Shown here piece by piece: positions 21,623 to 36,942 of a DNA stretch of 64,000 bases. Origin of the DNA: Pseudomonadota bacterium (GTDB lineage Bacteria; Pseudomonadota; Alphaproteobacteria; RF32; CAG-239); contig CAKJXZ020000010.1 in NCBI GenBank assembly GCA_918234285.1, positions 32,001 to 96,000 on the forward strand, in the 5' to 3' direction. How positions within the stretch are numbered: the first letter of the stretch is position 1; the number at the start of each line of letters is the position of its first letter. A program made the position numbers and the translations under genes. The notes beneath the pieces were generated by a model, which was given only the letters and a program-made list of their open reading frames with translations, was not told where the DNA came from and did no database searches.

Positions 21623-22345
21623 ATGCGTACTGGTCTAATCGCAAAAAAATTAGGAATGTCCCGCATTTTTCAGGCCGACGGAACTCATGTTCCTGTAACG
21701 GTTTTGAGTGTTGAAGGTTTGCAGGTAGTTAATGTAAAGACTGCCGAAAAAGACGGATACAACGCCGTACAATTGGGTACCGGCGCCGTAAAAGCCAAAA
21801 ATGTAAGCAAACCGCTTAAGGGATATTTCGCTAAGGCTAAAATTGAACCGAAAAAGAAATTGTGGGAATTCAGAGTTTCTGATGACTGCTTATTGAATGT
21901 CGGTTCGGAATTGTCGGTTGAACACTTCGTTCCGGGACAATATGTTGACGTATGCGCCACCTCAAACGGTAAAGGCTTTGCCGGCGTAATGAAGCGTTAC
22001 AATTTTGCCGGTTTGGAAGCAAGTCACGGTGTATCTATTTCTCACCGTTCGCACGGTTCTACCGGTCAAAGACAAGATCCGGGTAAAGTTTTCAAAGGTA
22101 AGAAAATGGCCGGACACATGGGTGCTGAACGCGTTACCGTTCAAAATCTCAAGGTTGTTTCGGTTGATTCTGCCAGAGGCTTGATTATGGTTAAAGGCGG
22201 CGTTCCGGGTTGCGAAAACGCATGGGTAAGAATTACCGATGCCGTTAAGAAGCCGGCTACTGTTGCTTTGCCGATGCCTGCCGGATTGAAAAAAGTTGAT
22301 GAACCTGTTGTGACAGCTGAAGTTTCGGCTGAGAATGCAGAATAG
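21623..22345 (+). CDS. rplC: 50S ribosomal protein L3
   Basis: [31 protein letters not shown]. Confidence 0.99.
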
Positions 22346-26372: not shown

Positions 26373-26741
26373 ATGATACAAATGCAAACCAACCTCGATG
26401 TTGCTGATAATTCAGGCGCACGTCAGGTGCAGTGCATCAAGGTTCTTGGTGGTTCCAAGAGAAAAACGGCTTCTGTGGGTGATGTCATTGTTGTAGCAAT
26501 ACAAGATGCGTTGCCGAGAGGACACGTTAAAAAGGGCGATGTATATAAAGCTGTTATCGTGAGAACGGCCAGCGATATTCGTCGCAAAGACGGAAGTGTA
26601 ATCCGTTTTGACAGTAATGCCGCAGTTTTAATCAATAAAGACGGTGAGCCGATCGGTACTCGTATCTTCGGCCCTGTTACGAGAGAATTGCGTGCAAAGA
26701 AATTTATGAAAATCATTTCATTAGCACCGGAGGTATTGTAA
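26373..26741 (+). CDS. rplN: 50S ribosomal protein L14
   Basis: [22 protein letters not shown]. Confidence 0.99.
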
Positions 26742-27049
26742 TGCCTAAAATGAAAATTAAAAAGAACGATACGGTTATCATTTTGTCGGGCGACGACAAG
26801 GGTAAAACCGGCGTTGTAAAAAAAGCACTTCCGAGAGAAAGCAAGGTTGTTGTTGAAGGTTTGAATATGGTAAAGCGCCACACCAAACCGTCGCAAACAA
26901 CTCCGGGCGGAATTATCTCGAAAGAAGCAGCAATTCACGTTTCCAATGTTGCCATTGTTAAAGAAGGCAAGGCAACCAAAGTCGGCTACAAAACCGTAGA
27001 CGGCAGAAAGGTTCGTGTTGCTCGCAAAACCGGTGATGTAATCGATTAA
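26741..27049 (+). CDS. rplX: 50S ribosomal protein L24
   Basis: KOW motif SGDDKGKTG and EAAIHVSNV. Confidence 0.98.
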
Positions 27050-27063
27050 TGGGAGAAAATTTT

Positions 27064-27603
27064 ATGACAAACTATGAAAATTTATATAACAACGTCATAA
27101 AGAAATCTCTTGTGGAAAAATTCGGTTACAAAAATCCACATGAGGTTCCGAAGCTGACGAAAATCGTTTTGAATATGGGTGTCGGCGATGCCGTTACCGA
27201 TAAGAAAAAAGTAACATCCGCTATGGAAGAATTGGCGGCTATTTCCGGTCAACAGCCGGTTATGACCAAGGCTCGCAAATCTATCGCTACCTTCAAAGTA
27301 CGTGAAGGTATGCCGATCGGTTGCAAGGTTACTCTGCGTTCTGCCAGAATGTATGAGTTCTTGGAAAGACTGGTTAATATGGCCTTGCCGCGAATCCGTG
27401 ACTTCCACGGTATTACCGGTAAAAACTTCGATGGCAAAGGTAACTTCGCTTTCGGTATTAAGGAACAAATCATTTTCCCTGAAATTAACTACGAAAAGGT
27501 AGATGAAGTCAGAGGTCTTGATATTGTTATTTGTACAACAGCTAAGACAGACGAAGAAGCAAAGTTTCTGCTGACATCGTTTAACTTGCCTTACAAGAAA
27601 TAA
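27064..27603 (+). CDS. rplE: 50S ribosomal protein L5
   Basis: [24 protein letters not shown]. Confidence 0.99.
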
Positions 27604-27617
27604 GCGGAGATTTTACT

Positions 27618-27923
27618 ATGTCAAAAACAAGTTCGGTATATAGAAACTTGAAAAGAGTTAAGATGGCTGCTAAGTATTCGAACCGCCGTCAAAAACAAAA
27701 AGCAATCATGATGGATAAGAATGCTTCTCCGGAAGAGAGAATGCAGGCTCAGTTTGCTTTGCAAAAATTCCCGAAGAATTCTGCAAAATGCCGTATTCGC
27801 AATCGTTGCAGAATTACGGGACGTTCACGTAGTTATTACAGAAAGTTCGGTTTAAGCCGTGTTGAATTGAGAGATTTGGCAAGCTTTGGCGAAATTCCTG
27901 GTTTAGTAAAATCAAGCTGGTAA
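27618..27923 (+). CDS. rpsN: 30S ribosomal protein S14 (long, Zn-free type)
   Basis: [17 protein letters not shown]; 101 aa. Confidence 0.98.
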
Positions 27924-27937
27924 GGAGGGAAGATATC

Positions 27938-28336
27938 ATGTCTATGAGTGATCCTTTGGGCGATATGCTCACACGCATCAGAAACGCACAAAGAGCGAAA
28001 AAGAGTGACGTTGTATCACCTGCTTCTCGCTTGCGTGAAAGTGTGTTGGAAGTTTTGAAGCGCGAAGGCTACATTGAAGGCTTTGAAAAGAACAATGTAC
28101 GTCCGGGTGTTGATGAACTTCGTATTCAATTAAAGTACCATGAAGGTGCTGCAGTTATTACAAAAATTTACCGCGTTTCGACTCCGGGCCGTCGCGTTTA
28201 TTCAAGCGTGAAGGATTTGCCGAGAGTTTACAACGGCTTGGGTATTTCCATCATTTCTACTCCGCAAGGTGTTATGAGTGATAATGAAGCCCGCAAGGCT
28301 AATGTTGGCGGCGAAGTTTTGTGCCAAGTGTTCTAA
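27938..28336 (+). CDS. rpsH: 30S ribosomal protein S8
   Basis: [27 protein letters not shown]. Confidence 0.99.
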
Positions 28337-28347
28337 GGAGGTAAGGA

Positions 28348-28884
28348 ATGTCAAGAGTTGGTAAATATCCAGTTGTTGTTCCTGCCGGTGTAGAACTGAG
28401 CATCAATAACAATACGGTTGTGGCAAAAGGTAAGTTGGGCGAATTGTCCTATTCTTTTGATGACAGCCACGTTGCAACAAAATTTGAAGACGGTAAAGTG
28501 ACGGTTTCACCGTTGTCTCAAAGTAATGCAGCCAGAGCTTTGTGGGGTACAACCCGCGCTCGCATTAATGAGATGATTAAAGGTGTAAGCGAAGGCTTTA
28601 CAAAAGATATGGAATTGGTCGGCGTCGGTTATAAGGCGCGTGTTGAAGGTAAGAACCTGATTTTGTCTTTGGGTTTTTCGCATGAAGTTACTTTTCCGGC
28701 TCCGGAAGGTATTAAAATTTCCTGCGCATCTCCGACACAAATTTCAATCTTTGGTGCAGACAAACAAAAAGTTGGCCAAGTTGCGGCAGAAATTCGTAAA
28801 TATAGAAAACCTGAACCGTATAAAGGTAAGGGCGTAAAATATACCAACGAATATGTACGTCGTAAAGAAGGCAAGAAGAAATAA
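28348..28884 (+). CDS. rplF: 50S ribosomal protein L6
   Basis: [17 protein letters not shown]. Confidence 0.99.
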
Positions 28885-28895
28885 GGAATAAGTCG

Positions 28896-29258
28896 ATGAA
28901 TACACCAAAAAAATTGTTTGAAAGAAGACAAGCTCGTGTAAGATACGCTTTGAAAAACGCCGCCAACGGCAAATTAAGATTGTCGGTTTTCCGCAGCGGT
29001 AAGCATATCTATGCACAAATCATTGACGATGTAAAAGGTTTGACAGTTGCTTCTGCATCTACCTTGGATAAGGAAATCAGAGGACAAATTAAAAAATCTT
29101 CTACGGTTGAAGCCGCTGGCTTCATTGGTAAAGTAATTGCTGAAAGAGCTACAAAATCCGGTATTTCCGAAGTGGTATTTGACCGCGGCGGTTATATCTA
29201 TCACGGTCGGGTTAAGGCCTTGGCTGAAGCAGCTCGCGAAGCCGGTTTGAAATTCTAG
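28896..29258 (+). CDS. rplR: 50S ribosomal protein L18
   Basis: [24 protein letters not shown]. Confidence 0.99.
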
Positions 29259-29267
29259 GAGATGAAG

Positions 29268-29828
29268 ATGGTACAATCTACAGATCGTCATAACAAAAAA
29301 GAAGTGAAAGATGAGTTGGTCGAAAGACTGGTTCACGTTAACCGTGTAGCTAAAACCGTTAAAGGCGGACGCACCATGAGTTTCGCCGCGGTTGTGGTTG
29401 TGGGTGACCAAAAGGGTCGTATCGGTTTGGGTACCGGTAAGGCTGCGGAAGTTCCGGAAGCAATCACCAAGGCTACAAACGAAGCAAGAAAGAATATGAT
29501 TCGTATTCCGTTGCGCGAAGGCAGAACTCTGCACCACGATATTTCCGGTCGTTTCGGCGCCGGTAAGGTGGTTTTGAGAACAGCTCCTGCCGGTACCGGT
29601 GTTATTGCCGGCGGCCCGATGCGTGCTGTTTTTGAAGTTCTGGGTGTGCAAGATGTGGTTGCCAAATCATTGGGTTCCAATAACCCGTACAATATGATTA
29701 AAGCAACTTTCGATGCTTTAAAGGGTATTAACTCACCGAGAATGGTTGCAGCTAAACGCGGCAAGAAAGTCGGTGATATTGTCAGCCGCCGTGAAGGTAT
29801 GGCCAAAGACGTTAAAGAGGAGGCTTAA
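29268..29828 (+). CDS. rpsE: 30S ribosomal protein S5
   Basis: [19 protein letters not shown]. Confidence 0.99.
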
Positions 29829-29830
29829 TC

Positions 29831-30019
29831 ATGGCAACTAAAAAGAAGACAATAAAAGTTACCAGAACTGGTAGCACAATCGGACGCCCGACTTATCAGG
29901 AAACTAACCTGAGAGGTTTGGGTTTAACCAAAACCGGTCGTACCGTTGAGTTGGAGGATACTCCTTCGGTTCGCGGAATGATTAAGAAGGTGGCCCACTT
30001 AGTCAAGGTTGAAGAATAA
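29831..30019 (+). CDS. rpmD: 50S ribosomal protein L30
   Basis: LRGLGL...[12 protein letters not shown]. Confidence 0.97.
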
Positions 30020-30022
30020 AAC

Positions 30023-30133
30023 TTGGGGAGAGTGCTAAGAGATTATCATACTTGCAAATTTCTTCCTTGTGTACCGTTTTGTACACGGCGTCAGAAATTA
30101 ACTGCGTAGCATAGTCTCTTATCCCTCTCTTAA
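30023..30133 (+). repeat. Long palindromic element, copy 1 (GTAC-core hairpin)
   Basis: Nested pairs TAAGAGATTAT/ATAGTCTCTTA and AATTTCT/AGAAATT; apex TGTGTAC-CGTTTT-GTACACG. Confidence 0.8.
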
Positions 30134-30180
30134 AAGATTTATTTTAAGACTTGCAGAGAATTTGAAAAAAGGTGAAAGAA

Positions 30181-30633
30181 ATGAAACTTAACGAATTAAA
30201 AGACAACGAAGGCGCTACCAAAAATCGTAAACGCGTAGGTCGCGGTATCGGTTGCGGCAAGGGCAAGACTTGCGGCCTTGGTCACAAAGGTCAAAAGGCT
30301 CGTGCCGGTGGTGCTAAAATGGGATTTGAAGGCGGTCAAATGCCGCTGTATCGTCAGTTGCCGAAGCATGGTTTTAAAAATCCGTTTGCAAAGACTTATG
30401 CCGTTGTAAACTTGGATACCATTCAAAAAGCTATTGACGGCGGCAAGTTGGATGCCAAGTCAATCAATGTTGAATCATTGCTCAGCTCTAACGTGATTTC
30501 TAAGAAGCTGGACGGCATTCGTTTGCTCGCACGCGGTGCAGTGACCAGCAAGATTGAAATCACCGTTAATTCGGCTTCTAAAGCGGCTGTAGAGGCCGTT
30601 GAAAAAGCCGGCGGCAAAGTAAATCTCATCTAG
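30181..30633 (+). CDS. rplO: 50S ribosomal protein L15
   Basis: [22 protein letters not shown]. Confidence 0.99.
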
Positions 30634-30745
30634 TTGGCAGCTAATACAAAAATTACGGGTCGGAAGTGTCCTCACGTACCTCTATGTACGCTCCGGTACT
30701 TCCGCCCTTATTTTTTATTATTTGCGCATACTATCTGAGATTTAC
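30619..30745 (+). repeat. Long palindromic element, copy 2 (overlaps rplO stop)
   Basis: GTAAATCTCA/TGAGATTTAC and CGGAAGT/ACTTCCG; apex CGTAC-CTCTAT-GTACG. Confidence 0.85.
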
Positions 30746-30756
30746 ATGGAGATATT

Positions 30757-30788
30757 AAAAGGGAGGTGCGATAAACACCTCCTTTTTT
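30757..30788 (+). terminator. Intrinsic terminator ending the S10-spc operon
   Basis: AAAAGGGAGGTG-loop-CACCTCCTTTTTT. Confidence 0.85.
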
Positions 30789-30845
30789 AATAACATAATA
30801 AAGTAAAAAAACGGTCGGATATTCCGACAGTTTAAGATTTTATCG

Positions 30846-31634
30846 CTAACCGTTTTGTTTTTTATTGGCTTTTATTTGGGCTAAATTTCTGCCCGGCAAC
30901 GCATCACGGCTGACCGTACGTTTTGGTGCTTTTGGTTTTTTAGGAAGCTGTTTATCTTGTTCCATATTTTCATCCGATGGTAATTCGGAAGAAAAAGTAT
31001 AAGTTTCATATCCAAATTCAATTTTTTTACTGCCGTCATTATATATAGCTTGTTCATGTTTTGCTTCAGCATCTTTTGATGTAACGCTCCAAAAACCATC
31101 TTTTTCAATATTTTTAAAGTCTCTGTCGAATTCTTCATATTCAAAATTCTGGGTTGTTTGTTCGTGCGCTTTTGGTTCTTTACGCAGTAATTCTTCTATT
31201 TTTTTATGATTGTCTGTATGATTGTCTTCGTTTGTTGAGCTTAAGAGTGAATCAATTTTTGCTTTAATAGCATTTCTTTCTGCTTGTTCTTCAGTGCTCA
31301 TAACGAATTTTGTTTCCTCTTTACCCAGTCGGACGGTATTCGGCTTCTTTGAGCCTATTTCTTTATACTCAGGATTTGAATAAATCTCACTATGAGTCCA
31401 CATATCGTGAGTTTTGTTCACCGAGGTCAGAACGGAATCCGGAGCACCTTCGGCGCCTTCTTTAAAAACAGAAATGCCTTGTGCACTCATATCTTTAACC
31501 ACTTGCTCGGTTTTACTTTCTTTTTTCTTATTGCTGTCTTCTTCCAACCATTTGTTGATAAAATAGGCTCCGGCGCTGCTTAATACGACTGCGGTCGCAA
31601 CACCGGCGCATAGTTGTTTCAGATTTTTGGCCAT
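30846..31634 (-). CDS. Hypothetical protein with N-terminal membrane anchor, charged body and basic tail
   Basis: AAAGGAG RBS, TTGACA-17-TATTCT promoter, and a hairpin near 30805-30833. Confidence 0.8.
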   Translation of the reverse strand: MAKNLKQLCAGVATAVVLSSAGAYFINKWLEEDSNKKKESKTEQVVKDMSAQGISVFKEGAEGAPDSVLTSVNKTHDMWTHSEIYSNPEYKEIGSKKPNTVRLGKEETKFVMSTEEQAERNAIKAKIDSLLSSTNEDNHTDNHKKIEELLRKEPKAHEQTTQNFEYEEFDRDFKNIEKDGFWSVTSKDAEAKHEQAIYNDGSKKIEFGYETYTFSSELPSDENMEQDKQLPKKPKAPKRTVSRDALPGRNLAQIKANKKQNG

Positions 31635-31782
31635 GGCGATTCTCCTTTGTAAAATACCTCTATTGATTAAAGAATAGAGGTAAAAATAAGTTTTGTCAAT
31701 ATATTTTTACAGAGGTAATACAAGCGGATTTATACGCAATTAGCGAGCTGGCGCAGTGTAATTTCGGCGGTGTAGAATATAT

Positions 31783-31890
31783 AAAAATACGGATAATGTG
31801 ATAAATACGACGAAAGCCTTTTCTCGAGGTGTACAACAATGGTACATAAGAGAAAAGGCTTTCAGGTAGTTATCCGTTATACGGATTTTT
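31783..31890 (-). repeat. Long palindromic element, copy 3 (abuts rpoA stop)
   Basis: Perfect 14-bp stem GAAAGCCTTTTCTC/GAGAAAAGGCTTTC; apex on the minus strand TGTAC-CATTGTT-GTACA; outer imperfect pairs. Confidence 0.8.
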
Positions 31891-32900
31891 TAGAATTGAT
31901 CTGAGGTACGTTTAATCAAATCCTCAATATTCTCCGGCGGCCAACCCGGTGTATCCATACCTAAGTGGATACCCATCTTAGCCAACACTTCTTTGATTTC
32001 GTTCAAAGACTTACGACCGAAGTTCGGTGTACGCAACATTTCTGCTTCCGTCTTTTGAACCAAATCGCCGATGTAAACGATATTGTCATTTTTCAAGCAG
32101 TTAGCCGAACGAACAGAAAGTTCAAGCTCATCAACCTTACGCAACAGGTTCTTGTTGAACGGCAATTCCTCACGAATATCTTCAACTTCGCTTTCCGGTT
32201 CATCAAAGTTAATGAACGGCTTAAGCTGATCTTGCAGAATGCGAGCTGCCAAAGCAACCGCATCTTCCGGAGAAACAACACCATTTGTTTCAACAATCAT
32301 AGTCAGCTTATCGTAGTCCATAGCTTGATTAACGCGGGTGTTTTCAACCTTATAAGAAACTTTCTTAACCGGAGAATAAATCGCGTCAACATTAATCAGA
32401 CCGATAGGCGAATCGCTGGTCATGTTGGTAGAAGCCGGAACGTAGCCCTTACCGGTAGTAACGGTCAATTCCATATTGATTTTAGCACCGGCATCAAGCG
32501 TGCAGATAATGTGATCCGGATTCATGATTTCAACATCATGACCGGTTTCAATCATCGCTGCAGTGACAACGCACGGACCTTCAGCCTTTAATGTCAGTGT
32601 TTTAGCCGATTCGCTGTGAACGGCAACCGCTAATTCCTTAACATTCAATACGATATCGGTTACATCTTCCATTACGCCTGGAATAACCGAAAATTCATGT
32701 AATACGCCGTCTATTTTAATAGCGGAAACAGCGCCGCCCTGTAACGAGGACAACAAAACCCGACGCAAAGCATTACCGAGCGTCAGACCGAAGCCTCTTT
32801 CTAAAGGTTCAACCACAATTTTAGCTTTGTTTGTGCCTTCTGTTTGAGACACATCCAACTTTGTTGGTTTAATCAATTCTTGCCAATTCTTTTGAATCAC
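31890..32900 (-). CDS. rpoA: RNA polymerase alpha subunit
   Basis: [40 protein letters not shown]; GTG start. Confidence 0.99.
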
Positions 32901-32988
32901 GGGTTTAATCCTTTTCTTTAGAAGTTATATATGCATATATTTTAAGCACGACGACAGGCCTGATTCGGCCTGTGTCGTAAAATAAAAA

Positions 32989-33378
32989 CTAGACGCGGCG
33001 TCTTTTTCTCAAACGGCAACCGTTGTGCGGAATAGGCGTTACATCGCGAATCGAAGTAATGGTAAAACCGATAACCTGCAATGCTCTGATTGCGGATTCT
33101 CTGCCCGAACCCGGACCTTTTACTTCAACTTCCAATGTTTTCATGCCGTTTTCCTGAGCCTTTTTACCGGCTTCTTCGGCAGCTACCTGAGCAGCGTACG
33201 GAGTAGACTTTCTCGAACCTTTAAAACCCTGAGCGCCGGCTGTTGACCAAGAAACGGTATTGCCTTGAGCATCAGCGATGGTAACTCTTGTATTGTTAAA
33301 AGAAGAATCGATGTGAGCCACACCCGAAGTAATATTCTTTTTTTCTTTCTTTTTTCTTTGAATTGTTGCTTTAGCCAT
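32989..33378 (-). CDS. rpsK: 30S ribosomal protein S11
   Basis: [24 protein letters not shown]. Confidence 0.99.
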
Positions 33379-33392
33379 TTGCACTCACCCCA

Positions 33393-33761
33393 CTATTTCT
33401 TCTTGTTCGCAATGGTTTTACGTTTACCTTTACGGGTACGAGCATTTTGTTTGGTGCTCTGACCGCGTACCGGCAGACCTTTACGATGTCTTAAACCACG
33501 ATAGCAACCCAAATCCATCAATCTCTTGATGTTGGTACCGACTTCACGGCGAAGTTCACCTTCAACCAGATAATCGCTATCGATAACTTCACGAATCTTC
33601 ATTACTTCATCATCGGATAAATCGTTAACGCGACGGTTAAGATCGATTCCGGACTTAGAGCAAATGTCTTGAGCAGACTTGCGTCCAATGCCGAAGATAT
33701 AAGTCAGTGCGACTTCAATTCTCTTGGCACTTGGAATATTTACACCAGCTATACGAGCCAA
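33393..33761 (-). CDS. rpsM: 30S ribosomal protein S13
   Basis: ARIAGV, YRGLRH..GLPVRGQ; TTG start. Confidence 0.99.
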
Positions 33762-33830
33762 ATTTAATCTCCATTATTTAATAAATTAAAACATTCAAAA
33801 AGTTGATCACCACTTTTCAAAATTAAGCGG

Positions 33831-33859
33831 ATTATAGGCACGATATTTATCAGAGTCAA
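33831..33859 (-). promoter_or_regulatory. Sigma70 promoter of rpsM-rpsK-rpoA
   Basis: Minus strand TTGACT-17 nt-TATAAT then CCGC. Confidence 0.75.
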
Positions 33860-33944
33860 CACCTTTTTGTAAAAAAATTGAATTTTTTTTGCGATTTTAA
33901 CGATTTTTTAAAAAACACCGCGAAAAACGCCGGTTTTAGGGCAA

Positions 33945-34625
33945 TTACCTATCGTCTTCCAAACCGAGTACGTCGCTTATTTTGCGGCTGACTGCATCGA
34001 TAGTGCCGGTACCGTCTACTGTTTTGAGCAAACCACGCTTTTCAAAAAAAGGAATAGTCGGGTAAGTAAGCAAACGATAGTTAATTAGGCGATTCTGCAC
34101 GGTTGTACGGTTATCATCTTTACGGCGAGCGAATTCCGTGCCGCCGCAAACGTCGCAAACTCCGTAAATTTGCGGTTTTTGAAACTTATCGTGATAGCCG
34201 GCGCCGCATTTCATGCAGGCATAACGCCCTAAAATACGTTCCATGATGATTTCATCCGGTACTTGAATTTCTAAAACCGCCGACAGCTTAATATTCTGTT
34301 CGGCCACCAAATCTTCCAAAACCTCGGCTTGCGGCAGAGTACGCGGAAAACCGTCCAAAATAAAGCCGTGTGCGCAGTCCGGCTCGGATATGCGGCTTTT
34401 TACCATTTCGATAATCATTTCGTCATTAGCAAATTCACCGCGCTCAAGTGTTGCTTTCAGTTCACGTCCGAGCGGCGTATCTTTTTCGGCAAACTGGCGC
34501 AGCATTTCGCCGGTAGATAAGTGCGCAATATGAGTCTTTTCTTTTAAAATACGAGCCTGTGTACCTTTGCCGCAACCGGGAGCACCGGTAAATACAACAA
34601 ACAGACCTTCTTTGGCGTGCGTCAT
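33945..34625 (-). CDS. adk: Adenylate kinase (Zn-lid type)
   Basis: GAPGCGKGTQ, FILDGFPRT, CxxC...CxxC lid. Confidence 0.97.
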   Translation of the reverse strand: MTHAKEGLFVVFTGAPGCGKGTQARILKEKTHIAHLSTGEMLRQFAEKDTPLGRELKATLERGEFANDEMIIEMVKSRISEPDCAHGFILDGFPRTLPQAEVLEDLVAEQNIKLSAVLEIQVPDEIIMERILGRYACMKCGAGYHDKFQKPQIYGVCDVCGGTEFARRKDDNRTTVQNRLINYRLLTYPTIPFFEKRGLLKTVDGTGTIDAVSRKISDVLGLEDDR

Positions 34626-34628
34626 CGT

Positions 34629-35978
34629 TTAACGGTTCTTCTTACTGATTAATGCCGCCTTTTTGAGCAAACCTTCGTATTGGTAGGCAATTAAGTGCGA
34701 TTGAACCTGATTTACGAAATCCATGGTAACCTGGACCACGATAAGCAGGGTAGTGCCGCCCAAAACAAACGGAACACCGACTCGGCTGATTAAAATTTCC
34801 GGCAAAATGCAGAGGCAGACCAAATAAACGGAAGCTACCATCGTCAGACGCGTAATTACGTAGTCGAGATATTCTGCGGTATTTTTACCCGGACGAATAC
34901 CTGCGATAAAGCCACCGTGTTTCTTCAGGTTTTCAGCGGTTTCTTCCGGATTAAATACCACGCCGGTGTAGAAAAACGTAAAGAACAGGATTAAGAAGGC
35001 ATATAAAGCCAAATACAACGGCTGACCATGACCGAGTAACTGGCTCAAAGTTTGTACCCAACCCGGACCTTGTTCGGCCGAAAGATTGGCTATCGTAATC
35101 GGCAACAACAGCAAAGAGCTGGCAAAAATCGGCGGAATAACACCGGTCGGGTTAATTTTCAGCGGCAAGTGCGAACTGTCGGCTGCAGTTATGCGCATCC
35201 CCATTTGGCGCTTCGGATATTGAATCACGATACGACGTTGTGCGCGCTCAACAAACACGATGACATAGATAAGAGCTAAAGCCATAATCAGCAGCATAAT
35301 GATGGTGCCGAAAGACATTTGACCGGCACGACCTAATTCAAAAGTCTGCGCTAAAGCGTTCGGAATGTTGGCAATAATACCTACCGTAATGATAAGTGAC
35401 GAACCGTTGCCGACGCCGCGCTGGGTGATTTGATCACCGAGCCAAACGATAAACATGGTGCCGCCAACCAAAGATACGATGGTCGAAAACTTAAATGCAA
35501 AGCTAGGAATCAATACAGCGGAAGCACCGTTGGCACCGGAAATGCTCAGCAAACCGACGGCAATACCGTAACCTTGAATAATCGTAATCAAAACCGTCAG
35601 CATCTTGGTGTAGTGTACGATTTTGCGGTGTCCGGCTTCACCTTCTTTTTTGAGAGCTTGCAAAGACGGAATAACCGACTGTCCGAGCTGAATGATAATG
35701 GATGCGGAAATGTAAGGCATAATGTTGAGGGCAAAAATCGTCATACGCTCCAACGCACCGCCGGAAAACATATTGAACATACCTAAAATACCACCCGAGT
35801 TACGGCTGAACATTTCAGCCAAAACGCCGGCATTAATACCCGGAAGCGGGATAAACGTTCCCAAACGGAACACGATTAATGCCATAACGGTAAACCATAA
35901 TCTTTTCTTAAGTTCTTCAGCCTTACCAAAGGCAGACATATCTAAGCCTGCTGCCATTTTTTCTGCTAACGAAGCCAT
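34629..35978 (-). CDS. secY: Preprotein translocase SecY
   Basis: IMPYISASII, GVGNGSS, GIRPGKNT, GGTTLLIVV. Confidence 0.99.
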   Translation of the reverse strand: MASLAEKMAAGLDMSAFGKAEELKKRLWFTVMALIVFRLGTFIPLPGINAGVLAEMFSRNSGGILGMFNMFSGGALERMTIFALNIMPYISASIIIQLGQSVIPSLQALKKEGEAGHRKIVHYTKMLTVLITIIQGYGIAVGLLSISGANGASAVLIPSFAFKFSTIVSLVGGTMFIVWLGDQITQRGVGNGSSLIITVGIIANIPNALAQTFELGRAGQMSFGTIIMLLIMALALIYVIVFVERAQRRIVIQYPKRQMGMRITAADSSHLPLKINPTGVIPPIFASSLLLLPITIANLSAEQGPGWVQTLSQLLGHGQPLYLALYAFLILFFTFFYTGVVFNPEETAENLKKHGGFIAGIRPGKNTAEYLDYVITRLTMVASVYLVCLCILPEILISRVGVPFVLGGTTLLIVVQVTMDFVNQVQSHLIAYQYEGLLKKAALISKKNR

Positions 35979-36207
35979 TTTATCATCCTTTAAAAAATTT
36001 AAAACCAAATAAGGGGCACTTTTTGCCCATTGCCGATAATTTAATACATAAAAATAAAATTAATGCAACAAAAATTTGTTTATCCTCAATATTTTGTTGA
36101 TGACAAGCGAATCGGCATGATTAAAAGAGGATTTTTGTTATGTGTGGCAATTATTCCCGTTCATCGGGGTTGCGTTTTTTGAACACGGTAAATTCGGCTT
36201 TAAAGTT

Positions 36208-36942
36208 TTATTTAATTTCTTGAGTATATTTCTTTTTAATTATTTTTACGATGTCATTGACCTCAACGGACTTTGTATCGTCGGTTGTTTTTTGCTTTTG
36301 CATCTTAGCTATACGATTTTTGACCATTTCAAAAGTTTGCGGTTGCATACTCTTTTCATCGATTTTTTGGCGGCTGCGGGTTTTTTGAGTTGTTTGAACG
36401 GAAACACCGCCTTTGCTTAAAGAGGCGAGTTGTTTTTCTTTTTGGGCGTTTTCGTATTCGGTTGAAGCGCTGACGGCATAACCGATGGCGCAAGCCGCAT
36501 AAGAACAAGCCAGATAAGCGGGTAGTCCGGTTGCCGCGGCGGAAACCGCCAAACCGCCGGTTAAAGCCGCAAAACCGGACGACAGTAGAATCTCAAATTT
36601 TTTCTTTTTAGGGAGTTCGCGCCATTTATCGCGGAATTTTGTTTTTCCCGAATCGGTTAAATCTTTTAATGCGGCCAAAGATGCTTTAGGATTTCTGTTA
36701 AGTTCGGAATTGAGTTTGGCTGATGAGTGGCTGGAAAGGGCTGCCATTGACATACCCAAAAAGCCGATGAGAGGACCGCCGCAATATTGCGCAACTAAGG
36801 CAGACGGTGCTAGTGCCGGCGCCACGGCCGCAACCAACCCGCCGACGGTCATACCGCCCCACAACAGGGCATTTGCTCCCCAAAAGGCAACGCTTCGTTT
36901 ATCTTCGGTGGAAAATTTTTTCCAGTTATCCTTAAAACTCAA
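36208..36942 (-). CDS. Hypothetical membrane protein with two related hydrophobic modules
   Basis: TTG start with GAGGAG RBS; upstream TTGACA on the minus strand near 37004-37009. Confidence 0.75.
   Translation of the reverse strand: MSFKDNWKKFSTEDKRSVAFWGANALLWGGMTVGGLVAAVAPALAPSALVAQYCGGPLIGFLGMSMAALSSHSSAKLNSELNRNPKASLAALKDLTDSGKTKFRDKWRELPKKKKFEILLSSGFAALTGGLAVSAAATGLPAYLACSYAACAIGYAVSASTEYENAQKEKQLASLSKGGVSVQTTQKTRSRQKIDEKSMQPQTFEMVKNRIAKMQKQKTTDDTKSVEVNDIVKIIKKKYTQEIK

Follow-up and report, generated by a model that had tools for sequence, protein, structure and literature searches.

The window analysed here is a stretch of 64,000 nucleotides (nt) (positions 32,001 to 96,000 of contig CAKJXZ020000010.1, assembly GCA_918234285.1) from an alphaproteobacterium of the GTDB lineage RF32; CAG-239. 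Within it the S10-spc ribosomal operon passes through rpsE, rpmD and rplO on the plus strand, and a secY-adk-rpsM-rpsK-rpoA block on the minus strand converges on this operon. Three long imperfect hairpins, called copies 1, 2 and 3 below, were found at the stop codons of rpmD, rplO and rpoA, where an original prediction made from the sequence alone had placed them, and the claim that all have the same orientation relative to the upstream gene is true of each. The three are full-length matches to R1, a covariance model built from A1, an alignment of 23 full genomic copies with the three window copies included, and they are therefore members of one repeat family in which copy 3 is canonical and copies 1 and 2 are diverged subtypes. 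The copies, their apices, their host genes and an adjoining terminator-like site are as follows:

29831..30019, plus strand: rpmD (L30), host of copy 1, 62 amino acids (TIGR01308, 75.8 bits).
30016..30138, plus strand: copy 1, intercistronic hairpin repeat between rpmD and rplO (R1, 76.6 bits, E 1.2e-16).
30066..30090, plus strand: apex of copy 1, a 6-pair stem with GTAC and a T-rich loop (columns 65-89 of A1).
30172..30633, plus strand: rplO (L15), host of copy 2 (TIGR01071, 162.8 bits).
30610..30751, plus strand: copy 2, long (~140-nt) subtype (R1, 52.3 bits, E 1.8e-10).
30671..30695, plus strand: apex of copy 2, whose CGTAC/GTACG stem is the covarying variant.
30762..30782, no strand assigned: ordinary short G+C-rich hairpin with A- and T-runs on its flanks, located 11 nt past copy 2 and resembling a two-way terminator.
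31776..31900, minus strand: copy 3, canonical and full-length (R1, 111.4 bits, E 1.8e-25).
31825..31850, minus strand: apex of copy 3, read in the sequence and aligned in A1.
31890..32900, minus strand: rpoA, host of copy 3 (NF003513, 539.4 bits).

The stop codon of rpmD (30017-30019) is located at the start of copy 1, whose outer arms are diverged and in which the terminal A-run and T-run are both missing. The coding frame of rplO runs through the first bases of copy 2 and ends at a TAG in the 5' arm (30631-30633). Copy 2 is also without a T-run, and the separate terminator that had been predicted after it was observed as the short G+C hairpin with T-runs at 30762-30782; the terminator scan lists this site on the minus strand and the T-run of the plus strand was found by reading the sequence. 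Copy 3 adjoins the TAA of rpoA (31890-31892) and has an A-run on its 5' side and a T-run on its 3' side. In sequence, the form expected of an intrinsic terminator, which is a stable hairpin with a directly adjoining U-run, is seen in copy 3 and missing in copies 1 and 2. When folded as RNA, copies 1, 2 and 3 reached -39.0, -32.8 and -36.4 kcal/mol with z-scores of -4.07, -4.78 and -8.64 respectively, and none of 200 shuffles was as stable in any of the three cases. The apex strings quoted in the original prediction are present at the three apices listed above. The opposite strand of the copy 3 locus scored only 34.6 bits against R1.

The pattern GTACC-N3-7-TGTAC occurs four times in the window where 0.10 occurrences are expected. 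Three of these are the apices, and the fourth (21767-21780) was rejected as a family member as it has neither hairpin arms nor a model match. A search of the whole 64-kb window with R1 and its filters off gave nothing notable besides the three copies. A degenerate partial unit seen by eye on the 3' side of copy 3 (~31700-31775, minus strand) was not detected by the model with the filters off.

The genome consists of 2,005,265 bases in 71 contigs and its assembly is 100% complete. The same pattern was observed 27 times in it and its reversed control not once, and the flanks of most of these matches align over their full length. A profile search with nhmmer found 52 matches, which comprise 23 full elements and 29 partial ones, and R1 scores all three window copies across all of its 124 positions. 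The arms had been thought to show no evident similarity between copies; this did not hold, as the single model fits all three. The expectation of a dispersed repeat family was borne out by the 23 full and 29 partial copies, in which the stems covary while the apex and several unpaired bases are conserved.

The element is an imperfect palindrome of about 115 nt, with a subtype of 140 nt. Read from 5' to 3', a canonical copy consists of the stop codon, an A-run, a conserved outer arm with a 3x3 internal loop, a variable inner stem and a conserved GTAC apex over an asymmetric loop, followed by the complementary arms and a T-run. The A-run and the T-run correspond to columns 12-16 and 136-140 of A1, and 19 of the 23 copies end in at least four T residues, as counted by eye in the alignment and not by script. 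Each arm is an inverted copy of the other, formed by a non-palindromic unit of about 35 nt, and a small hairpin, which carries no GTAG or CGTC tag, is found at the apex only. As a side observation, a perfect -10-like TATAAT is located in the conserved 5' arm of most copies, in the region of the 3x3 loop (A1 columns 21-26; 30032-30045 in the window).

Covariation is extensive in this family. RNAalifold gave 34 consensus pairs with compensatory changes in 25 of them. On the consensus structure 92.7% of the cells are paired, compared with 75.7% in shuffles and 35-52% when the partners are slid, and the cells changed on both sides number 151 against 45.7 in shuffles, a value that none of 500 shuffles reached. 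The covariation noted next to GTAC was confirmed, since this position is a UA pair in 22 copies and a CG pair in one, copy 2; the asymmetric internal loop below the apex was also found, with 3 nt in its 5' strand against 4 nt in its 3' strand in the consensus. G-U pairs show no excess over A-C mismatches (A1 has 13 of the former and 11 of the latter, and 38 copies from relatives have 19 and 14, over 2057 cells of which 93% are Watson-Crick), and the complementarity of the family is therefore strictly Watson-Crick. Such pairing fits a constraint at the level of DNA, or copying of DNA, better than it fits a fold of one RNA strand. Template switching, as described in part of one report, can create and keep hairpins (PMC8794818). 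The conservation of unpaired bases beside stems that change in a strictly Watson-Crick manner suggests that the unpaired bases matter.

We tabulated the orientation and the stop distance of each copy, as had been proposed, and sense copies were observed to abut stop codons almost without exception, mostly those of codon-adapted genes. At least 20 of the 23 full copies have a same-strand open reading frame (ORF) of at least 100 amino acids whose stop lies -15 to +8 nt from the start of the element. The three exceptions are copy 1, which abuts the 62-amino-acid rpmD all the same, one copy located 42 nt from its ORF and one at a contig end. Measured to a fixed alignment column, the stop is 5-9 nt upstream in 14 of 21 copies. 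Abutting stops in the genome (n=21) are TAA in 19 cases and TAG in two, and a few codons of both rplO and tuf are read within the element. No full copy (n=23) is located inside a gene; in 21 cases the element abuts the gene or overlaps no more than its stop or final codons. Orientation tracks the gene rather than the chromosome arm, as copies 1 and 2 are on the plus strand and copy 3 on the minus strand within 2 kb, and opposite-strand scores are 30-43 bits against 100-123 bits.

The same arrangement was observed in relatives. We sampled 20 regions of up to 20 kb from 18 genomes, picked because they hold listed matches, with 11 regions from nine genomes of the same genus and nine from other genera. 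These regions hold 65 matches. Thirty-seven are full-length at 55 bits or more and one more strong match is cut at the region end; the remainder are weaker, partial or opposite-strand echoes. An open frame of at least 80 codons precedes 33 of the 37 strong copies, with the stop beginning -1 to +11 nt from the match start in 32 of them, and the stops are TAA in 25, TAG in seven and TGA in one, where the TGA is inside the element. TGA is found at none of the 53 abutting stops, a set that includes orthologues and is not made up of independent sites, compared with 194 of 986 long ORFs genome-wide.

The host genes in the genome encode or are nusG, mutL, ileS, a histidine kinase, a protein of unknown function, rpoA, rpsA, dnaK, a FadL-like porin, PFOR, rpsD, an OmpA-like lipoprotein, PPDK, TolC, thyA, a PPIase, recR, fabG, rplA, tuf, rpmD and rplO. 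A codon-adaptation index was derived from 16 genes of the S10-spc cluster. On this index, 19 host genes have a median percentile of 88.8, and nine of these reach the 90th percentile or higher.

The closest RpoA loci belong to metagenome-assembled Alphaproteobacteria from human, ruminant and other guts, the best with 93% identity. A match to the element was found in all 24 other genomes of the genus and, at the level of the taxonomic family, in 139 of the 149 genomes sampled, with all 20 genera represented. Across the class, 150 families were searched with one genome apiece, and 10 of these 150 genomes had a match; one of the ten (G214) is unpublished, the figure is 9 of 149 without it, and nothing else reported here depends on it. 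The positive genomes at class level are all small (1.1-2.3 Mb), and the matches read in three of four such genomes are of the 140-nt type, with one apex resembling that of copy 2.

Individual sites differ in age. At the rpoA site the element is present at six of 16 related loci and the other ten have an A-run, a short G+C hairpin and a T-run, and the C-terminus of RpoA is equally long at both kinds of locus. The rpoA copies of five genera have a homologous inner stem with compensatory changes in place. The hairpin between rpmD and rplO was found in at least 10 of 30 genomes, from nine genera, without A- or T-runs; at its orthologues the GTAC of the apex can covary to other pairs. The stop site of rplO is occupied in at least seven of the 30 genomes. 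The rpsA site is filled in one genome of the 30, the source genome of the window; in two congeneric species with a 91% identical S1, a plain terminator follows 22-25 nt past the same TAA and the protein end is identical. This comparison of empty and filled alleles, which the original prediction had called for, indicates that new copies arise. Judged from these orthologous sites, copies are both vertically inherited, with those at rpmD-rplO and rpoA being ancient, and newly gained exactly at a stop, as at rpsA.

The partial copies follow a simple rule. None of the 29 partial matches begins before model position 39, and 28 extend as far as the 3' arm; no lone 5' half was found. Fifteen of the 23 full copies have at least one such 3'-half unit downstream in the same orientation and none has one upstream. 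Some units of these arrays are near-identical and others have a different inner stem, which suggests tandem duplication for the former and a separate origin for the latter. Four contigs break within 3'-half arrays (C51:1-200, C7:38083-38216, C40:1-60 and C56:3839-3894) and, because the assembly breaks there, the true copy numbers exceed the counts given here. At C59:10172-10200, a tandem duplication of the initial 15 nt, with the TAA, precedes a full copy that lies behind a TolC-like gene. Near-identical copies (C51, C36) were also observed behind unrelated genes, and inner stems travel between loci together with the copies.

We consider that the family is probably a repeat that spreads by copying of DNA and that works in transcripts as a terminator or as a hairpin at the 3' end, a role also suggested for REP (PMC3733652), ERIC (PMC2229807) and SPRITE (PMC3049150) repeats. 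At rpoA and rpsA the element occupies the slot that an ordinary terminator fills in relatives that lack it. This slot, together with the A-run at the start, the usual T-run at the end, the highly expressed hosts and the retention of a copy inside an operon, argues for such a role. In the transcript the repeat would form a long 3' hairpin. Where a U-run follows, this hairpin could act as an intrinsic terminator and as a barrier to 3' exonucleases, while copies 1 and 2, which have no U-run and lie inside an operon or before a separate terminator, may act as stabilising or processing hairpins. Abutment to the stop would leave no unprotected single-stranded spacer and would let the terminating ribosome open the base of the stem. 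In RNA libraries, one contig of a ~96%-identical relative spans rpsE, rpmD, copy 1 and rplO (29585-30638), which is weak evidence as it may derive from DNA.

Several observations weigh against this interpretation. Termination cannot be the common function, because copies 1 and 2 have no U-run and copy 2 has its own terminator after it, and purifying selection alone fails to explain abutment within a few bases. G-U pairs are not enriched, unlike the usual trace of selection on a one-strand RNA fold, and a constraint on DNA or the copying of DNA fits the missing excess at least as well. Two hosts are poorly codon-adapted, namely mutL (12th percentile) and recR (7th percentile), and the counts across relatives, like the 53 abutting stops, include orthologues and so are not independent. 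The RNA runs are assembled contigs of relatives which show neither ends nor strand and may contain DNA. The bins 30726-30847 and 31458-31823, which are uncovered in all four runs, and the contig boundaries within the apex of copy 1 (ends at 30071 and starts at 30075) cannot be read as transcript ends.

The main rival is a selfish DNA-hairpin mechanism, which we regard as a serious but less probable explanation. The family would then be non-autonomous mobile DNA whose hairpin is the single-stranded substrate of a transposase or recombinase, and its position at stops would reflect a choice of target rather than a function in RNA; the target might, for instance, be DNA that is accessible at terminators or immediately behind a ribosome that is terminating. 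The strict Watson-Crick covariation, with no G-U excess, and the exact placement at stops keep this rival alive. The conserved asymmetric loops could set strand and orientation, the fresh gain at rpsA begins exactly at the stop where relatives have a spacer of 22-25 nt, and near-identical copies occur at unrelated loci. Furthermore, 3'-half units are found only after full copies (15 of 23), as if repeated insertion at the stop had pushed older ones downstream, and the 15-nt duplication of the 5' end on contig C59 and the absence of TGA from the abutting stops point in the same direction. The CGTC REPs of Alphaproteobacteria are likewise described, in the part of the source used here, as having no known transposase (PMC3733652).

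Genes that could supply a mobilising enzyme were searched for. The prediction that such an enzyme lies outside the window agrees with the finding that no plausible mobilising gene is present within it. The suggested HUH/RAYT partner, which in REPIN systems is a single-copy gene that as a rule has the repeats at its flanks, was not found, as the genome has no match to Y1/RAYT (PF01797). In the taxonomic family, Y1 genes occur in 31 of 81 genomes as patchy, multi-copy or broken units of ordinary IS200-like elements, and three genomes of the same genus without any Y1 gene hold 16-18 element matches each. The ends of IS200/IS605 insertion sequences (IS) were rejected as the source of the repeat because the end hairpins of the relatives' elements differ from it in sequence; near tnpA, R1 with filters off gave only 17-bit matches to a generic A/T-flanked hairpin. 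The relatives' IS200-like units were seen to consist of a Y1 transposase gene of about 150-165 amino acids, end hairpins and a 5' hairpin of about 80 nt over the start region; the genome of the window has no such unit. No IS110 gene was found in the genome, and TnpB gave a single profile match of 19.4 bits, below the cut-off. The one reverse transcriptase is on contig C27 and not near any copy; it is a protein of 343 amino acids (C27:9733-10341, RVT_1 63.7 bits) located about 5 kb from a tyrosine recombinase (C27:3984-4463). Tyrosine recombinases (PF00589) have 12 matches in the genome, none of which is tied to a copy.

No consistent target-site duplication was observed in the flanks of 60 copies, so that none could be defined, and a motif found repeatedly past the T-run is part of the partial unit downstream rather than of a target. 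The lack of a Y1/RAYT, IS110 or TnpB gene in a 100%-complete assembly and the persistence of 16-18 matches in Y1-less congeners count against selfish mobility, as does an orientation that tracks the gene and not one direction of replication. The retention of an operon-internal site across nine genera would also be hard for a pure parasite to achieve in genomes of 1.2-2 Mb.

Some further ideas on the origin of the sequence were tried and discarded. GTAC is not an avoided word of the restriction-related kind, as its observed to expected ratio is 0.87; among other words of the genome, GATC occurs 1769 times against 7577 expected (ratio 0.23) and CTAG has a ratio of 0.35. A 7-nt stem match between the rpsA terminator of the two congeners and a partial unit of this genome had raised the idea that the inner stem is a captured native terminator, or that the 'empty' terminators are decayed elements. 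Local alignment rejected both, because the empty 3' regions aligned with the 23 copies no better than shuffles did (160 of 200 shuffles in one case and 68 of 200 in the other equalled or exceeded the real score) and because inner stems travel between loci.

A variant of the mobile explanation, which we hold to be unlikely, is an element that inserts in sense orientation at the first bases behind TAA or TAG, by a targeting rule not yet described. The target could, for instance, be DNA or RNA that becomes accessible when the ribosome halts while the polymerase moves on, new copies would push older ones downstream where the 5' arm is lost, and the enzyme would be an unrecognised one common to several small-genome families of Alphaproteobacteria.

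We consider it rather improbable that the copies are cis-regulatory RNA sites to which a conserved host protein, for example a nuclease or an RNA chaperone, binds at the apex and internal loops, and that they are repeated because a single protein is recruited to numerous highly expressed mRNAs. Such sites would agree with the conservation of unpaired bases across taxonomic families beside covarying stems, with the use of the sense orientation only, with the bias of the hosts to codon-adapted genes and with an operon-internal copy that is conserved without A- or T-runs. They fit poorly with the lack of G-U tolerance, with an apex GTAC that can itself covary and so is not strictly fixed, and with tandem 3'-half arrays and near-identical paralogous copies, which resemble the dynamics of a DNA repeat. 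No candidate protein was identified either. An Rfam covariance scan of window positions 27000-36000 on both strands (E at most 1) compared the elements with known families, as had been suggested, and gave no match at them; its only match was Alpha_RBS at 33729-33802, on the minus strand upstream of rpsM, and is weak at 25.1 bits against a gathering score of 38.

A kinship with the Rickettsia palindromic element RPE-1, which had been proposed from the look of the apex, is very doubtful. The host is indeed alphaproteobacterial, and the one match in a six-frame genome search with TIGR01045 does fall on the apex of copy 2 (minus strand). This match covers 13 of 48 profile positions with 11.3 bits, where the cut-off is 30, and an E-value of 0.83; the other 22 full copies have none, six of 14 unrelated control genomes match the profile at the same threshold, and the copies lie behind genes and not in frame inside them. 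Membership was therefore rejected.

The attC sites of integrons are likewise imperfect palindromes located behind stop codons; their ends are conserved, their centre varies, and they follow promoterless cassette genes in a single array beside an integron integrase. An origin of the family as attC-like recombination sites, which gene-oriented hairpins behind stops, Watson-Crick covariation, conserved bulges and the 12 tyrosine-recombinase matches might recall, can practically be set aside, given that the hosts are core housekeeping genes in conserved operons and not promoterless cassettes, that the copies are scattered over many contigs and not in one array, and that no recombinase adjoins any copy examined (no search with an integron-integrase profile was made).

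Other features of the neighbourhood and of the genome were recorded. The secY to rpoA block (31890-36008, minus strand) is inverted relative to the S10-spc operon (26741-30633, plus strand). Recombination between copies 2 and 3 was rejected as the cause of the inversion because both copies are at the same end of the block. The gene rplQ does not follow rpoA here, while it does in several related loci, and rpsD is located elsewhere in the genome (C3:119829-120443). Two ORFs without any Pfam or NCBIfam match were found on the minus strand: one of 262 amino acids between copies 2 and 3 (30846-31634), with its own promoter-like site (31671-31699) and terminator-like hairpin (30814-30828), and one of 244 amino acids between secY and alaS (36208-36942). 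Elsewhere, 36 paralogous ORFs of about 200-470 amino acids form tandem runs and occur at contig ends (C36:6991-10819, C69:25404-28483 and others). They match only Pfam LRR and DUF4893, and weakly, and the run on contig C69 begins just after a tyrosine recombinase of 314 amino acids (C69:24575-25075).

Records of the lineage come only from metagenome assemblies of gut and rumen, and few non-coding features of its small genomes are as regular as this repeat. With a model of it, annotators can mark gene ends, tell true terminators from repeats and explain contig breaks. The family is also a good system for an old question, that of how REP-like repeats without a dedicated enzyme spread and whether they are of use to the host, because it combines strict abutment to stops, conservation in a ribosomal operon across genera and the lack of a recognisable transposase. 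Word searches of the literature, in which the supplements of the cited papers were not covered, gave no description of it, and the family is apparently undescribed while belonging to a known kind, the small palindromic interspersed repeats.

REP and REPIN sequences are among the closest known systems. As far as the parts of the reports cited here describe them, REPINs are hairpins of about 100 nt that persist vertically, and REP hairpins are intergenic and occur in tens of copies (PMC3337134, PMC3116915, PMC3733652). Most REPs are found downstream of coding regions, in many cases under 20 bp from the 3' end; the stop codon itself can be provided by GTAG REPs, and CGTC REPs are typical of Alphaproteobacteria (PMC3733652). 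The present family is likewise an intergenic hairpin repeat in tens of copies downstream of genes and near their stops. However, its arms are not the 20-40 bp palindromes with a GTAG or CGTC tag described in that account of REPs (PMC3733652), no RAYT was found in the genome and the Y1 genes of relatives belong to patchy IS200-like elements. It also differs from REPs and REPINs in that its tip is the best conserved part and its orientation to the gene is essentially invariant.

Compared by description, ERIC or IRU elements (127 bp) are of similar size and are long imperfect palindromes as well, and the part of the source consulted reports their co-transcription with flanking genes, an orientation-dependent effect on the stability of upstream mRNA and a proposed opening by the ribosome (PMC2229807). 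Unlike the present family, ERIC is found in both orientations, and that part of the source reports neither a stop rule nor 3'-half arrays (PMC2229807).

SPRITE repeats, according to the portion of their description used here, have AAAA/TTTT termini and a long stem followed by a U-rich tract, are enriched near the 3' ends of coding sequences and have no matching IS or transposase and no defined target duplication; co-option as a terminator was proposed for them (PMC3049150). The family shares the A/T-run termini, the long stem with a T-tract and the location at gene 3' ends, a likeness of description. In contrast to SPRITE, for which the same portion gives an 18-bp duplex and some 30 copies within a single species group, the family forms a nested hairpin that has about 50 pairs and in which apex and internal loops are conserved, extends over a whole taxonomic family and beyond, and includes operon-internal copies without U-runs.

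RPE-1 resembles the family as a palindromic repeat of similar size in an alphaproteobacterial lineage, but its insertions are described, in the part of the source cited, as in frame inside genes (PMC3733652), whereas the copies here lie behind stop codons. Lastly, the family is like two-way intrinsic terminators in having an A-run, a hairpin and a T-run behind a gene, and in relatives such terminators are found in the same slot. It is unlike ordinary terminators in that it has about 50 pairs where they have 5-15, that it is homologous between loci with conserved unpaired bases, and that some copies have no T-run or are followed by a separate terminator.

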